A DNA stretch of 64,000 nt, taken from positions 310,001 to 374,000 of the forward strand of contig JAVHYY010000086.1 in the NCBI GenBank assembly GCA_035221665.1, read 5' to 3'. The notes beneath the pieces were generated by a model. It did no database searches. It had not been told where the DNA came from and saw only the letters and a list, made by a program, of their open reading frames with translations. Source of the stretch: Okamejei kenojei. Its lineage: Eukaryota. The translations under genes and the position numbers were made by a program. Below, in pieces: positions 4,405 through 47,366 of the stretch. Numbering within the stretch: the stretch's first letter is position 1; every line of letters starts with the position of its first letter.

Positions 4405-4443
4405 TGTTTTTGTACAGGCTCAGCACCGCAACGAGACTCGGTG
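4405..4443 (-). promoter_or_regulatory. 23-RSS of V2
   Basis: CACCGAG (4443-4437), 23-nt spacer, ACAAAAACA (4413-4405). Confidence 0.85.
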
Positions 4444-4905
4444 GGGCTCAGGGCACAGTAGTACACTGCCGGGATTTCCAGTTGTGCTTCAGACACACTC
4501 AATAGGACGATCCGCCTCGAATCATCAAGAGAGGTTGAAAAGTGTTGACCCGGTGAATTGGTCTGTGCTTGGTCTGTGCTTGCTTATCCAGAGCATAAAT
4601 TCCATGGGTCCTCCGGCATCTTAACGGTACCGGTATAGATACGTAACTTGTGTGCTCGTTGCTGTGTAGTTACATCGCAACTCAACGTCGCCACATTCGC
4701 TTACTGCGGTTGCAGCCGATGTCTGTGAAACGGAATCCCCTGGATAATACCCAGCAAGAGGTCGGAACGACATTAAATCAGACAATAACGCTGTGCCGCC
4801 CGTACACTGAATAATACCCTCATTCTTAAATTCCTGCGTTCAAAATATATCTACGCATTATAACAGCCGAGCAGAAGCCCACATCAATGGACAACAAGGT
4901 CCCAT
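4444..4905 (-). pseudogene. TCR alpha/delta-type V pseudogene V2
   Basis: DSVSQTSAATAVSECGDVELRCNYTATSTQVTYLYRYR* (W>R, TAA at 4623-4621), 11-bp internal duplication AAGCACAGACC, ends ..PAVYYCALSP. Leader-like MGPCCPLMWASARLL* from ATG 4905. Confidence 0.88.
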
Positions 4906-5726: not shown

Positions 5727-5745
5727 TGGCCACTGGAGGGCAGCA
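5727..5745 (+). promoter_or_regulatory. Putative CTCF-binding site
   Basis: TGGCCACTGGAGGGCAGCA closely matches the vertebrate CTCF core TGGCCACCAGGGGGCGCTA. Confidence 0.6.
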
Positions 5746-16954: not shown

Positions 16955-17430
16955 ATGTGTGAACACCGCCTCCCGATCTTCGTTATCATGTCACTTCTCA
17001 GTAAGGATTTTCATCCAGTAAAAATCCTATCTTCCCACGAATGTTGTCACCGGATTTCTGCCGATGTAAAGATAATGCTGATGCCGCTTCAATCATATGA
17101 TTCTGACAATTTATATTTTCTCTTAGACTGGAGCCATCAATATACGGTGGAACAGACCGAAGCAGAAACCACGTTTGCAGAGGGAACGGATGTAACACTC
17201 AAGTGCCTATTGAAAACCAGCGATACACTCCCATATGTTTACTGGTACAAACAATGCCTTGGACATTCTCCGCAGTACCTGATTCAGGTTATTGGAAATA
17301 ACGTATACAGGGCGAAGGGCATCACAGATCGATACTCTGCTACATTCAATAAAACTGCCAAGATGGGCGAGTTCGTGATACGTGACGGCGTGTTCTCCGA
17401 TTCCGCTCTGTACATATGTGCCATGCGATA
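16955..17430 (+). CDS. Intact TCR V gene segment V3 (TCR alpha-like): leader exon 16955-17000, intron 17001-17126, V exon 17127-17430
   Basis: MCEHRLPIFVIMSLL|NWSHQYTVEQTEAETTFAEGTDVTLKCLLKTSDTLPYVYWYKQCLGHSPQYLIQVIG..DRYSATFNKTAKMGEFVIRDGVFSDSALYICAMRY. GTAAGG donor, TTTTCTCTTAG acceptor, phase 1; canonical Cys, Trp, Cys present. Confidence 0.92.
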
Positions 17431-17469
17431 CACACTGGTGCAAAGGTGCAGCGGCTTCGAACAAAATCC
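17431..17469 (+). promoter_or_regulatory. 23-RSS of V3
   Basis: CACACTG (17431-17437), 23-nt spacer, ACAAAATCC (17461-17469). Confidence 0.92.
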
Positions 17470-17491
17470 CACCTTCGGCGTTCATCATTAT

Positions 17492-17510
17492 CGATCGCCA
17501 GAGGGCGCTC
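17492..17510 (+). promoter_or_regulatory. Putative RSS-proximal CTCF-binding site
   Basis: CGATCGCCAGAGGGCGCTC (core CGCCAGAGGGCGC), 22 nt after the V3 nonamer. Confidence 0.65.
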
Positions 17511-18673
17511 TTAGTCATCAAACAGAAAGGCTGCCAGAATAAAGATGCTTTTAGACTTTAGATTTTAGACCTTAGAGATACTACGCGGCAATGGGCCCTT
17601 AAGACCACCGATTACCCGCGGACCAACTCTCATCCCAAACAGTAGCACTATTCTACGCGCCAGGGACAATTACAACTACTTGGACTTAACAATGGCGCTA
17701 CTTATACGACTGCTTTACACTTGGACTATATTTGAGATGGTTATCTGATATGTATCTAAGTGTTTATGCATATTGATACGTGTATTGAACTGCATATGAA
17801 AATAAATTTCACTGTACCTCGGTACATGTAACAAATACATACCATACCATTCCAATTTACAATGTTTAGCGAAGCCAATTAATCTACAACCCTGTACGTT
17901 GTTTGTGTGTGGGGGTAAGCAGAGCACCCGGTGAAAACCGACACAATCACAGGTATATATACAAACCCCTTACCCCCAGAATGGGATTGCTTTCAACATG
18001 TGAATTTGTGCGAATGCTGTTGCGCCCAATGTTCAAGATCTTGATATTTCGATGTGGAAGTGCACCAACTGACTAGAAAATATGTTTGCATTGACATTGG
18101 TTCAGTTGCTGATCTATGTAAAGACCTTTATAGTTCCCACGGACTCTTGTATATTTCGAAACCCGCCTGCATGAAGAGTGGAAGTAAGTCCTTCAGTGAG
18201 CAGGGACATCATGAGAGGTATAATGTATTTTGATCAACACATTGTGCCAGGAATAACGTTGAAGGATAAGACCAATCGCGAACTAACGACGGCAGCAAAC
18301 GCAATTCACCAGAGTTCTATCTCAATTACACGGCTGACGGCTTCTGCTGACGCCTTCAAGACAATCCATAAGAGAACATGATCAACGGTAATGCAGGCCA
18401 CCGCGGCAGATGCAATGTATCATCAATAAGGATGGGGAAAGAGCTATTTAATATTTGTTTATTTTGTATTATGGTGGTGGGTTATTTGTATTTTCGTGTG
18501 TATTTTTATAAATGGTTATTAAAATTATTTTTGTCAATAAATACAAACACCACGGTTTTTATGTCGAAACTGCAAATTTAGATGCATTCTCTCAGAAATT
18601 GAGGAGGAAACATTGAGCTGGATGCGATTTGGCCAATGACACCATTTGGGCAATGACTTCTGCGCTCACGCAA

Positions 18674-22498: not shown

Positions 22499-22537
22499 AG
22501 TTATTGTACGAGTCTGCACACAGTTCCCAACACTGTG
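22499..22537 (-). promoter_or_regulatory. 23-RSS of V4
   Basis: CACAGTG (22537-22531), 23-nt spacer, ACAATAACT (22507-22499). Confidence 0.93.
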
Positions 22538-22837
22538 CGACTGCACAGTAATATATCGCCATGTCAGACAGCCGTAGCCTAGAAATAGTCATCTGATATA
22601 TTTTCGTTGACTGCTGAACTTCGTCAGAAAACCGCTCACGAGCGAAATCCGCCTTATCTTCATAACCTCCGTCAGTATATCTCCGGACCAGGAACTCCGG
22701 GTGACCGTTGGGGTACTGGCGGTACCAGAACAAGTAGTAACCATCCTTGGCAAAGGTGCAGGTTAAAATGGCGTTTTCCCCCTCTGTATGCGTAAGAGAG
22801 GTCGTCTCTTGGGTCACGGAATCAGCATCACCCCGAC
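22538..22837 (-). CDS. TCR V exon V4: open frame and canonical RSS, but no functional adjacent leader (ORF/pseudogene status uncertain)
   Basis: Acceptor ..CGCGTTCCAG ends at 22838; (G)RGDADSVTQETTSLTHTEGENAILTCTFAKDGYYLFWYRQYPNGHPEFLVRRYTDGGYEDKADFARERFSDEVQQSTKIYQMTISRLRLSDMAIYYCAV. Confidence 0.88.
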
Positions 22838-36180: not shown

Positions 36181-36380
36181 CAGGGTTGATGGTGGAGGCA
36201 GGTATTTTAATAAACTAAGAGGCTTTTATATAGGTAGTTGGATATGCAGGGGATGGCGGGGCATGGATCAGTGCAGACAGAGGAGATTAATTTAACGAGA
36301 AACTTTAACTCCCTTATTTATAAAGTCTCCCTAGTGCGATATTTCCCCCCTGGCGATTGTTAACAGGAATTCGAAGAGTG

Positions 36381-36419
36381 TTTTTTTGCTCAAGTCCGCC
36401 ATGTTTCCGCAGCATTGTG
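36381..36419 (-). promoter_or_regulatory. 23-RSS of V6
   Basis: CACAATG (36419-36413), 23-nt spacer, GCAAAAAAA (36389-36381). Confidence 0.85.
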
Positions 36420-39400
36420 GGGTTCATGGCACAGAGATAAACAGCGGAGTCGAAGATCGCGGCCTCGTGGATCGTCGGCTCGGTGTACTTCGTGTTATCG
36501 TACGTAGCGTATTACTGTATGTATACAATATCGTATGTATCGTATGGATGTCAGATGTGGGAGGTAATAGAGTCGGGTAGCCCTCCAGACGTCCACATCT
36601 GCGCCAGGTGTGTCGAGATGGGGCTGCTAAAGGAGTGTGTAAGGAACCTGGAGCAGCAGCTCGATGACCTCCGTCTGGTCAGGGAGAGTGAGGAGGTCAT
36701 AGAGAGGAGTTACAGGGAGGAAGTCTCTCCAAAACCACAGGAGGCAGACAAGTGGATCACGGTTAGGAGAGGCAAGGGGCAGAGGCGGGCGCTAGAGAGT
36801 ACACCAGTGGCTGTACACCCTGGAAATAAGTACTCCTGTTTGAGTGCTGTTGGGGGGACCTGGGGGTAGCAACAGCGACCTGCCCTGCGGTACAGACACC
36901 GGCCCTGTTGCTCAGAAGGGTAAGGAAAATAAGATAATTGCATCAGCAATAGGGGACTCTATAGTTAGGGGGTCAGATTGGCGATTCTGTGGACGCAGTC
37001 CAGAGACCCGGATGGTAGTTTGCCTCCCTGGTGCCAGGGTCCGGGATGTGTTTGAACGTGTCCAAGATATCCTGAAAAGTGAGGGAGAGGAGCCTGAGGT
37101 CGTGGTACTTATTGGTACCAATGACATAGTTAAAAAAAGAGAGGAGATCCAGAAAGGTGAGTTTAGGGAGTTAGGAAGAGAGTTAAGGAAAAGAAAAGCA
37201 AACATAACAATCTCAGGATTACTTCCTTTGCCACGCGACAGTGAGAGTAGACATGGTGCAAGGTGGAAGATACATTCCTGGCAGAAGGACTGGTGCAGAG
37301 GGCAGGGATTCAAGTTTCTGAATCAATGGAACCTCTTTTGGGGAAGGAGTGACCTGTATAAAAAGGACGGGTTGCACTTGAACCCGAGGGTGACCAGTAT
37401 CCTGGCAGAGAAATTTGCAAAGGCTGGCGGGGGGACTTTAAGCTAGAACGGTTGGGGGGAGGGACTCAAGTAGTGAAAGCCAGTAGACAGGGTAGAAAGC
37501 CAATAGAAAGCCAGTAGACAGGGCTGAAAACGCTAGTTGTGTACAGGCCACCTAACAGTAATAGTGGAGTTGGGGATGGCATCAAGCAGGAAATTAGAAA
37601 TGCGTGCAACAAGGGTAAAACAGTTATAATGGGTGACTTCAATCTACATATAGATTGGGTGAATCAAATGGGCAGGGGTGCTGAGGAAGAGGATTTCTTG
37701 GAATGTATGCGGGAATGTTTTCTAAACCAACATGTAGAGGAACCAACGAGAGAGCAGGCTATTCTAGACTGGGTGTTGAGTAATGAGGGATGGTTAGTTT
37801 TCAGTCTTGTTGTGCGGGGCCCCTTGGGCTAGAGTGAGCAAAATATGGTTGAGTTCTTCATTAGGATGGAGAGTGGGTTGACAGTGGATGTGCAAAGGAA
37901 GGTATTTAAAGACTGCATTGATGAACTACAACAATGGTTCATCCCAGTTTGGCACAAGAATAAATCGTGGCAGGTAGTGCATCCATGGTTAATAAGGGAA
38001 ATCAGGGATAGTAAAAAAAAGATGAAGCTTACAAATTAGCCAGAAAAAGCAGCCTACCAGAGGACTGGGAGAAATTCAGAGTTCAGCAGAGGAGTGCAGA
38101 GGGCTTAATTAGGAAAGGAATAGATTATGAAAGAAAACTGGCAGGGAACATAAAAACTGACTGTAAACGTTTTATAGATATGTGAAGAGAAATAGATTAG
38201 TTAAAACAAATGTAGCTCCCTTGCAGTCAGAAACAGGTGAATTGATCATGGGGAACTAGGACATGGCAGACCAATTGAATAACTACTTTGGTTCTGTCTT
38301 CACTAAGGAAGACTTAAATAATCGGCCGGAAATAGCAGGGGACAGGGGGTCAAATAAGGTGGAGGAACTGAGTGAAATCCAGATTAGCCTAGAAGTGGAG
38401 TTGGGTAAATAGAATGGATTAAAGACCGATAAATCCCCAGGGCCAGATAGTCTGCATCCCAAAGTACTCAAGTAAGTAGGCACAGAAATACTGGAAGCAT
38501 TAGTGATAATTTTTCAAAACTGCTTAGATCCAGGAGTAGTTTCTGACGATTGGAGGGTTGCTAATGTAACCCCACTTTTAAAAAAAAGAAGGGAGAGAGA
38601 AAACGGGGAATTACAGACCAGTTAGTCTAACATCGGTAGTCGGGAAACTGCTAGTGTCAGTTATTAAAGATGGGATAGCAGTACATTTGGAAAGTGGAGA
38701 AATGATTAGACAAAGTCAGCATGGATTTACGAAAGATAAATGATGTCTGACGAATTTTATAGACTTTTTCGAGGATGTAACTAGCAGAGTGGATAAGAGA
38801 GAACCAGTGGATGTGTTATATCTAGACTTTCAGAAGGCCTTCGACAAGGTCGCACATAAGAGATTAGTACATAAACCTAAAGCACACGGTATTGGGGGTT
38901 CAGTATTGATGTGGATGGACAACTGGCTGGCAAAACAGGAAGCAATGGGTAGGAGTAAACGAGACATTTTCAGATTGGCAGGCAGTGACTAGTGGGGAAC
39001 CGCAAGACTGAGTGCTAGGACCCCAGCTATTTGCAATATATATTAACGATTTGGACGAGGGAATTGAATGCAACATATTCAAGTTTGCGGATGAAACTAA
39101 GCCTGGGGGGTGTGTTAGGTGTGAGGAGGATGCTAGGCGGCTGCAAGATGACTTGGATAGGTGAGTGGCCAAATGCATGGCAGATACAGTATAATGTGGA
39201 TAGATGTGAGGTTATCCACTTTGGTGGCAAAAAACAGGATAGTAGACTATTGTCTTAATGGTGGCAAATTAGGAAAAGGGGAGATGCATCGAGACCTGGT
39301 TGTCATGGTACACCAACAATTGAAAGTAGGCATGCAGGTGCAGCAGGCAGTGAAGAAAGCAAATGGTATGTTAACATGCATAGCGAAAGGATTTTAGTAT

Positions 39401-40410
39401 AGGAGCAGGGAGGTTCTACTGCAGATGTACACGGTTTTGTTGAGACCACACCTGGAGTATTGCGTACAGTTTTGGTATCCAAATCTGAGAAAATACATTC
39501 TTGCAATAGAGGCGGTACAGAGAAGGTTCACCATTCTGATTTCTGGGATGTCAGGACTTTCATATGAGGAAAGACTGGATAGACTTGGCTTGTACTCGCT
39601 AGAATTTAGAAGAATAAGGTGGGATCTTATACAAACTTACAAAATTCATAAGGGGTTGGATAGGCTAGATGCAGGAAGATTGTCCCCGATGTTGGGGAGG
39701 TTCAGAACAAGGGGTCACAGTCTAAGGATAAGGGGGAATTCCTTTAGGACCGAGATGAGGAAAACATTTTCACACAGAGCGTGGTGAGTCTCTGGAATTA
39801 TCTGCCACAGAAGGTAGTTGTGGCCAGTTCATTCGCTATATTTAAGAGGGAGTTAGATGTGGCCCTTGTTGTTAAAGGGATCTGGGGATATGGAGAGAAG
39901 GCAGATACAGTATACCGAGTTGAATGATCAGCCATGATTATATTGAATGGCGGTGCAGGCTCGAAGGGCCGAATGGCCTAGACCTTCACCTATTTTCTAT
40001 GTTTCCATGTTTCTATGTAGCAGGAACCCGATCGGGGAGGTCAATATTTATGCTCTGTTGTCTTGCAATAATACGAAGCAGACACTGCGGAGGTTTGCGG
40101 GGCCGCTGTCTGTACCAGAAGGCATTGGGGTGTGCAATGTTTGTTTTCAATGTGCAGTTTAATTTGATAGTGTTTTCCTCTTCGAAAAACGTTTCAGCGA
40201 CTGGCTGCTGCACTGTGTCTTGGCAGCTACATTCTAACGGAAATTACGAGGACAGTCATCAGCGTAACCTCTATCAATCCAATCACCGTCATTCTATAAA
40301 TGTAATTTTCAGGATTACATAGATTTAGTTAAGTCTGGAATATTGCTCGGTGTGAAAGTCTTACCGATAAGTGACATAATGATGAGGAGCGAAGCCAGGC
40401 ATTCCTTCTT
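36420..40410 (-). pseudogene. TCR V pseudogene V6 (V3 family) split by a CR1: leader 40410-40365, V exon 5' half 40233-40017, 3' half 36508-36420
   Basis: Leader (AAG for ATG)KECLASLLIIMSLI|GTAAG. CSCQDTVQQPVAETFFEEENTIKLNCTLKTNIAHPNAFWYRQRPRKPPQCLLRIIARQQSINIDLPDRVPAT // YDNTKYTEPTIHEAAIFDSAVYLCAMNP; the halves rejoin in frame across TSD GTAGC. Confidence 0.92.
36509..40016 (+). mobile_element. Near-full-length CR1 LINE (ORF1 with Zn-finger and SGNH esterase, internally deleted ORF2)
   Basis: ORF1: CQMWE..HICARC, AIGDSIVRG, VCLPGARV, LIGTNDI, DGLHLN. ORF2: YRPPN, MGDFN, ILDWVL, YLDFQKAFDKV. TSD GTAGC at 36504-36508 and 40017-40021. Confidence 0.95.
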
Positions 40411-46282: not shown

Positions 46283-47328
46283 ATGAGAGTTGTCATTGTT
46301 TTCACGCTCTGTGTCTATTTATTCTGTGAGTATCTATCAAACGCGAATTGGATAAAGAAAGAACAACTTCCCATCTGAAACTACAGGACGCTTTTTTCGC
46401 TCTCGCTGCTTTTAAATGGGCCGAGCGGCGTGGCGTTGGCAGTGGGCAATGGGAGACGCCAGCGCAGATTATTTTTCGAGAGTTTTACCAAAAATAGCGT
46501 TCTCAAATAAGAGCAAGTTGTTTCACAATAGGTGTCCATTTAGGCCTCTTTTAGTGCCAGTCCAGAAAAAGATTTTCATATTTCCACCGAAATGAAGGCT
46601 ACGCCAGAGACACGATGGAACTGCAAGACACTGGAATCTTGAGCAAAACGCAAAGTGCCGGAGTAACTCAGCGGCCCAGGCATCATTTGTTGAGGGGATG
46701 GACAGGCGGAGTCTCCAGTATGGCCATTGCTTCAGACTGGAGAGCACGTTTGTGCTCGGGAAGGCGGCGGCATCCAGTATTTCAACAGTCTGTCGCTGTT
46801 CTGCTGACACGGTGATTCTACATTTCCCAAGACCCAGTCTGATCCTCTAGAAATACTTGTTCGTTGCCCTTCTTGCCAGCTTATATTTGATCACGGAAAT
46901 ATCGTTGTAGCGAACTGTTCTTCCGGCCTGCCACTTATCCCAACCCAACCTTTAAAATGTTGCTTAAGTGTGGTTTGTACTGATGACTCATTTTGTTTTT
47001 CCTGAAACGTGTCACAGGTTTGAGGTCTGGAGGTTCCGCAACCGAACTCAAGCCTTCAGCGAGAATGAGAGAAGATGAAGTGGTGACGATGTTTTTGCAA
47101 TTATAGCACGAGAGAATCCGCTTATTCTTTATTTTGGTTCAGAAAACAGGCAGAGAATGGGCTCGAGTTTATTGCGCGGATGAAGTCTTGGATGATTGAA
47201 GAAGGGAGAGCCGAGGAATTCCACACCCGCTTTTTCCCGAAGCACGACATGAATTCCAAATCCTTCAGCTTAACGATATCAGGCTTACTGATAACCGATT
47301 CAGCTGTGTATTACTGCGCTCTCGAATG
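46283..47328 (+). pseudogene. TCR alpha/delta V segment V7: leader 46283-46325, intron 46326-47017, V exon 47018-47328, single +1 frameshift
   Basis: MRVVIVFTLCVYLF|GTGAGT..CACAG|LRSGGSATELKPSARMREDEVVTMF, then an extra T in the T5 run at 47092-47096, then CNYSTRESAYSLFWFRKQAENGLEFIARMKSW..RFFPKHDMNSKSFSLTISGLLITDSAVYYCALE. Confidence 0.9.
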
Positions 47329-47366
47329 CACAGTGATGGAAAACAGCGTTTACCACCACAAAAACC
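47329..47366 (+). promoter_or_regulatory. RSS of V7 (consensus heptamer and nonamer, 22-nt spacer)
   Basis: CACAGTG (47329-47335), 22 nt, ACAAAAACC (47358-47366). Confidence 0.93.

Follow-up and report, generated by a model that had tools for sequence, protein, structure and literature searches.

CTCF sites at a fixed short distance behind the recombination signal sequence (RSS) of V genes are known from mammalian immunoglobulin heavy chain (IgH) loci. In the accessible parts of the main source, they were described in mouse, human, chimpanzee and rabbit, at 17-19 bp behind the nonamer in mouse and at 19 or 48 bp in human, with their presence predicted by V clade (PMC6746451). In mouse, the V genes that carry such sites are D-proximal, and scanning beyond the sites is impeded (PMC6746451; bioRxiv 10.1101/2020.01.01.891473). 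The Igh scanning model is set out in PMC4914699, PMC7930373, PMC3920468 and bioRxiv 10.1101/2020.01.01.891473, again available in part, and the result of Jain 2018 is taken here from PMC7930373 and Ba 2020 (bioRxiv 10.1101/2020.01.01.891473). At mouse Tcra/d, 129 of 144 V-region sites point to J-C, and the TEA site lies near the start of the J-alpha array (Loguercio 2018, PMC5859386, accessible sections). For cartilaginous fish, the portions of the literature at hand report a CTCF orientation code in skate TADs (PMC10115646), the rescue of loops in human cells by ray CTCF (bioRxiv 10.64898/2026.10.19.760054) and the confirmation of elasmobranch CTCF orthologues, the last with no binding motif given in the available text (PMC7471279). 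The accessible text of PMC10322711 deals with shark TRA ends and does not mention CTCF, and that of PMC5931798 contains 0 occurrences of the term. In a literature search covering mainly open-access main texts, RSS-adjacent CTCF sites were not found reported for cartilaginous fish, nor for TCR alpha V genes; sites of TCR loci may be included in Table S3 of PMC6746451. Within the literature examined, which was available in part, mammals are the only group with documented RSS-adjacent CTCF elements and RAG scanning, mainly at IgH, and the design was found described only at mammalian IgH and at two mouse TCR-beta genes.

The window, the whole 64-kb stretch of DNA that was analysed (contig C988:310001-374000), contains an intact TCR alpha/delta V gene, V3, with a leader, a V-set exon and a 23-RSS, located upstream of a D-delta/J-delta/J-alpha array (Table 1). 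The closest PDB matches of the V3 exon were TCR alpha and V-delta chains. An earlier note on this DNA had placed a CTCF motif 22 bp behind the RSS of V3, and this was confirmed: the motif, CGATCGCCAGAGGGCGCTC, starts 22 nt past the nonamer and scored 16.7 bits (exact p 1.1e-6) with the CTCF matrix (PWM) MA0139.1. Compared with the published consensus, CCASYAGRKGGCRS, it has two mismatches. It ranks 5th among the PWM matches in the window and, since five matches that strong are present, this single site is modest evidence. Two of the other window motifs, at 5727 and 42936, have apparent counterparts at C176:327369 and 396964.

The second gene considered in the earlier note, V6, is inverted relative to V3 and the D/J array. 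Its exon is broken by ~3.5 kb of non-LTR retrotransposon remains comprising a GDSL-type ORF1, an endonuclease and an RT, a domain set to which the name 'CR1' presumably applies. The motif at V6 is decayed as had been claimed, with 1.8 bits at 36359-36341 compared to 16.7 bits at V3; its GGCGC end, however, appears in the V3/V6 alignment to be split by an insertion of ~7 nt and not simply lost. V6 is a paralogue of V3, as proposed, but a distant one given the ~38% protein identity, and the inversion, missed earlier, could equally explain the decay of the motif. The V3/V6 pair alone proves little, so the whole locus was tested.

Table 1. Features of V3, V6 and the remainder of the window, and non-RSS CTCF motifs of contig C241 (positions are those of the window unless C241 is named)
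Feature	Position	Strand	Details
V3 leader exon	16955..17000	+	MCEHRLPIFVIMSLL; phase-1 GT donor at 17001; read off the sequence
V3 exon, intact TCR alpha/delta-type V-set domain	17127..17430	+	Pfam V-set E 3.8e-14
V3 23-RSS	17431..17469	+	heptamer CACACTG 17431-17437, 23-nt spacer, nonamer ACAAAATCC 17461-17469
V3 nonamer-to-motif spacer	17470..17491	+	22 nt; across the clade, length kept, sequence poorly so
V3 RSS-associated CTCF motif	17492..17510	+	sense, toward D/J array; from PWM and synteny C988 to C176 to C241
V6 3' exon remnant and degenerate RSS	36381..36508	-	heptamer CACAATG at 36419, nonamer GCAAAAAAA
V6 decayed CTCF motif	36341..36359	-	offset 21; 1.8 bits; 4 mismatches to consensus
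Decayed non-LTR retrotransposon within V6	36509..40015 (approximate ends)	+	GDSL-like, Exo_endo_phos_2 and RVT_1 matches
V6 5' part of V exon	40016..40243	-	tblastn 38% to V3; Pfam V-set; inverted relative to V3
Other window V genes	1439-1718, 4443-4734, 22537-22829, 47048-47329	-, -, -, +	motif-less clades; three inverted
Further window CTCF motifs off RSSs	5727, 42936, 51091, 62007	+ (all; D/J-facing strand)	17-20 bits
C241 V-facing motif	C241:284012	+	25 kb before D-delta
C241 V-facing motifs	C241:212967, 204979	+	12 and 4 kb before first J-alpha; strand given for 204979
C241 V-facing motifs	C241:40308, 34995		beyond probable C-alpha
C241 V-facing motifs	C241:395531, 414357		
C241 motif facing away from V array	C241:28869		

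For the locus, the analysis covered 725 kb of contig C176 and 435 kb of C241, together with portions of C988, C268, C633 and C1046. On the minus strand of C241, two D-delta, three J-delta and 92 J-alpha-type segments (a row count) were found. C-alpha (~C241:73 kb) and C-delta (~237.6 kb) were placed by weak tblastn matches only, and C-alpha was not found by the Pfam PF09291 profile. The same V gene, with a near-identical flank, is represented both at C176:701332 (+) and at C241:~430 kb (-). V3 in turn has a counterpart on C176 at 359412/359714 (+), which is 92% identical (87% at the nucleotide level over 472 bp), and from these two matches it follows that the plus strand of the window faces D/J. 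Just 37% of the words were present in a second individual with the same species label. This and the difference between V3 and C176:359412 reflect either high haplotype divergence or a duplication. In this genome, IgH occurs as small clusters that are dispersed, light-chain V-J genes are already joined in the germline, and Ig-like V genes are found next to D-delta, all of which are hallmarks of cartilaginous fish. The Ig-like V genes, at C241:281700 (-), 297541 (+) and ~305600 (+), are located a short way upstream of D-delta, together with an additional C-like exon in inverted orientation.

A total of 163 V ends were collected, of which 137 were kept and 26, including one inverted clade pseudogene, were dropped for want of a credible RSS. 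A motif was called where the sense-strand CTCF score reached at least 10 bits at offsets of 15-30 past the nonamer. By this measure, 72 of the 137 V ends carried a motif, at offsets 20-22 in 62 cases and at 28-29 in six, while background windows farther downstream gave 3/3836; the positional enrichment 3' of nonamers for which the earlier note had called was thus present. The mean count in 200 shuffles was 0.4 (maximum 2), and none of 500 column-shuffled PWMs reached 72, the highest count being 21. The position of the motif across the family is therefore far beyond chance. The offset from the RSS has an SD of 3 nt, and CpG occupies motif positions 15-16 in 69 of the 72 sites. In 12 V ends, an antisense match scoring at least 10 bits overlapped the motif at offsets 17-18, because the GCGC context is partly palindromic.

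The motif was confined to one V clade, being present in 72 of its 92 members and in 0/45 of the other V genes; for C176 alone, the counts were 36/42 and 0/31. In a quick protein tree, all motif-bearing genes fell on one side of a branch, V3 being a long-branch member of this clade. The published consensus was matched within two mismatches at 70 of the 92 clade sites. The clade is mostly D/J-distal, with a median distance of ~830 kb from the first J-alpha. A looser genome-wide pattern search gave 102 matches versus 7 for the control, and was set aside as a statistic; about half of those listed belonged to the V locus and many others to one dispersed repeat-like sequence. The word TGCAG/TTCAG, found 9 nt before the motif at 27 of the 72 sites, was considered as a CTCF upstream module and dropped, as the spacing is too short; the canonical spacing of that module is longer than 9 nt.

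For the analysis of conservation, the V genes were grouped into 29 subfamilies (70% identity clusters), 15 of which carry the motif and share 27-66% protein identity with one another. Pairwise identity among these 15 was 0.58-1.0 in motif columns 5 and 9-17, compared with 0.38 in the preceding 20 nt, 0.33 in the following 40 nt and 0.54 in the RSS spacer. Column conservation followed the information content of the CTCF matrix (Spearman 0.77, p 1e-4), a test that is partly circular because representatives were picked and aligned by motif; the fixed offset and strand are free of this circularity. The swaps tolerated across subfamilies were C/T at position 8, A/G at 11 and G/T at 12. PWM position 4, where CTCF prefers C, is usually T (8 of the 15 subfamilies), and many sites are consequently of medium strength. 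When the V3 flank (17400-17545) was compared with contigs of four other organisms, some of which are perhaps paralogues, changes were listed at 7 of the 22 spacer positions and 5 of the 19 motif positions, a count that omits differences at contig ends and may thus mask the 3' part of the motif in two records. With the same proviso, no change was listed at 17496 or 17500-17506. Four of the five listed motif changes cost less than 1 bit, compared with 28% of all possible single changes. These patterns mark a real, clade-wide feature that is under selection.

The earlier note had also linked loss of the motif to pseudogenes. This was seen as a tendency and not as a rule: the motif was kept in 54 of 62 intact clade members (eight being below threshold) and in 18 of 30 broken ones. 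C176:366566 and C176:144872 are examples of intact genes whose motif has decayed. The difference (Fisher p 0.006) is confounded, as many assembly indels damage frames and motifs together, and the Fisher p values overstate independence, since the V copies are related and several contigs are probably alternate haplotypes. The first assignment of broken genes, by tblastx, had placed 34 in the clade, 18 of them with motif (p 4e-4); four were then moved out, two of them (C176:632999 and 676344) based on the tree and the other two (510062 and 663503) after their sequences were seen to be divergent. In addition, good motifs were retained at four orphan RSS remnants. The link between intactness and motif within the clade is therefore weakly supported.

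At other receptor loci, a forward RSS-adjacent motif was absent from the TCR-gamma V ends (0/5, a small sample), from the IgH V ends (0/4, likewise small; 11 loci were fetched, with two near-duplicates), from TCR-beta (five rows on C35, one of them doubtful, and a C576/C35 pair) and from nine C241 rows representing about five real V ends. One TCR-beta V gene, C35:3475787 (-), has a reverse-oriented CTCF motif of 18.2 bits behind its RSS at 3475707 (+). The TCR-beta region contains two C genes of opposite orientation (C35:3.31 Mb, minus, and 3.61 Mb, plus), and this motif faces the cluster that its V would reach by inversion.

The orientation of the V genes also separated the clades. On C176, all 42 clade members counted were in the deletional, D/J-facing orientation, compared with 13 of 31 other V genes. 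Two inverted clade members were examined, V6 and C176:~391.6 kb, the latter left out of this count because its RSS is broken; in both, the RSS or the exon is broken and the motif has decayed. By convention, a forward CTCF motif faces downstream. On C241, eight motifs away from RSSs scored at least 14 bits, and seven of them face the V array. Two of these seven, C241:204979 and 284012 (+), lie in positions similar to those of TEA and the intergenic elements in mouse. In the V region of C176, the non-RSS motifs above the same threshold were mixed, eight forward versus 13 reverse.

In comparison with the IgH VH elements as described in the accessible parts of Ciccone 2019 (PMC6746451), Bolland 2016 (PMC4914699) and, for VH81X-CBE, Ba 2020, the fish motif likewise keeps a short, constant spacing 3' of the nonamer, in a single orientation, with spacer length kept and spacer sequence not. 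In both systems presence of the element tracks the V clade, and the linked V genes are oriented for joining by deletion; the mammalian element is weaker in pseudogenes, for which the fish motif shows the confounded tendency described above. The fish core lies mostly 21-23 nt behind the nonamer (one subfamily has 28-30), which is ~4 nt longer than in mouse (17-19) when counted to the same motif base, the human distance being 19 or 48. The fish sub-consensus differs from the mammalian one, often having T at position 4, AGAGGGCGC, and the non-RSS motifs of the fish V region are mixed in strand, unlike those reported for mouse Igh. As to the earlier proposal that the design of mouse Igh V genes operates here, orientation and fixed spacing match that design but D-proximal position does not, as the fish sites are mainly on D/J-distal V genes and the mammalian IgH sites, in the sources available, on proximal ones. 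The fish element furthermore belongs to the TCR alpha/delta locus of a cartilaginous fish. The accessible data on mouse Tcra/Tcrd (PMC5859386) resemble the fish in locus type, in J-C-facing sites and in a site near the J-alpha start; the mouse sites there are, unlike those of the fish, mostly upstream of V promoters or intergenic, off the RSS. At mouse Tcrb, an RSS-near CTCF site is listed for 2 of 18 V genes as isolated cases (PMC5859386 Table 2, in the part available), whereas in the fish it is clade-wide, phased and present in dozens of genes. By analogy, the fish element would work like the mammalian RSS-associated CTCF element. This likeness to the IgH class does not establish homology, given the TCR alpha/delta locus, the mostly distal clade and the 0/4 result for IgH. 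What is new is that a variant of a known regulatory design turns up at a locus and in a lineage where it was not expected.

Based on this analogy, we consider it likely that the clade motif binds CTCF, stalls cohesin loop extrusion and holds the adjacent RSS at D/J-bound RAG. As inferred from mouse Igh, CTCF would occupy the clade motifs in thymocytes, and extrusion from the J or D recombination centre would pause at each of them, some two helical turns before the RSS is reached. Such pausing would make these mostly distant V genes join more often to J or D by deletion. As the site would be excised upon recombination, it would act on recombination and not on expression. Since the mouse sites mark D-proximal V genes and impede onward scanning, dozens of distal tandem sites would need weak or stochastic occupancy.

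The main rival, unlikely on its own though it may add to a scanning role, is that these are true CTCF sites acting locally, by nucleosome positioning, through an unmethylated CpG-rich flank or by direct RAG contact at a fixed helical phase, so that the RSS is opened without long-range scanning. The core is held 21-23 nt away, or about two helical turns, a spacing tighter than a scanning pause needs, and the near-constant CpG at positions 15-16 (69/72) fits such a role as well; a looping-independent or direct RAG effect has also been proposed for the mouse sites, in the accessible text of PMC6746451. A purely local role would nevertheless leave unexplained both the near-uniform deletional orientation of the clade, when motif-less V genes are mixed, and the opposing motifs near D and J.

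The remaining readings fare less well. That the motif is a neutral passenger, duplicated or converted with the V-RSS unit, or the site of another factor (E-box or YY1-like CAGATGGCG variants), is improbable: it is limited to one side of a branch of the V tree, strong copies are kept at orphan RSS remnants and some variants contain CAGATG or CAGGTG, but the core is kept over 27-66% protein identity while both flanks are near background, the majority form AGAGGGCGC has no E-box, and the substitutions follow CTCF tolerances. Similarly improbable is a role as insulator or promoter-upstream CTCF site for the next V gene of the tandem array, unrelated to the RSS. The V genes are densely packed here, and mouse Tcra/d offers a precedent, its sites being mostly upstream of V promoters (PMC5859386 Table 2, available part); against this, anything from 1.0 to 20.9 kb separates a motif V from the V that follows, yet its RSS offset stays fixed (SD 3 nt), and the nearest V downstream of V3 is inverted and 5 kb distant. 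Only 3 of the 62 intact clade members have a motif in forward orientation at 300-900 nt upstream of their heptamer.

For the origin of the fish element, the evidence leans towards convergence or differential loss rather than descent from the base of the jawed vertebrates, because the IgH V ends gave 0/4 here and the mouse Tcra sites are mostly promoter-upstream. Cartilaginous fish are the oldest-branching lineage with RAG-based immunity. Coupling of extrusion to V(D)J recombination would be either as old as the jawed vertebrates or so constrained as to have evolved twice with nearly equal spacing. More tentatively, CTCF-paced RAG scanning of V genes might be a jawed-vertebrate-wide principle, either passed down from the common ancestor and retained at IgH in mammals or invented twice, with the fish locus running two modes side by side: a distal RSS-CTCF clade that loop-extrusion scanning joins by deletion only, and a motif-less set, more proximal and present in both orientations, that joins by diffusion or inversion. 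Motif-bearing and motif-less V clades in one locus offer a natural comparison. How distal V genes are reached thereby becomes testable with existing genomes and repertoires, as does whether the scanning and diffusion modes are legible from sequence.

Across the V array (C176, C988, C268, C633 and C1046), the heptamer also followed the clade: 53 of the 62 intact motif-clade genes have CACACTG, and of 21 others, 17 have CACAGTG or CACGGAG. The non-consensus heptamer may be compensated by the CTCF site. At C176:22672, 39433, 82511 and 94367 (+), orphan units were located ~300 nt behind clade V genes, each consisting of a degenerate V 3' end, a 23-RSS (CACCSTG / ACAAAAACG) and its own CTCF motif of up to 23 bits. 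These four units are either truncated V remnants or decoy RSS-CTCF units. Within the 92-segment array of C241, the region 123179-151395 (-) shows a recent tandem expansion of ~35 J-alpha segments, spaced ~750 nt apart and mostly having the nonamer AGTTATTGA.
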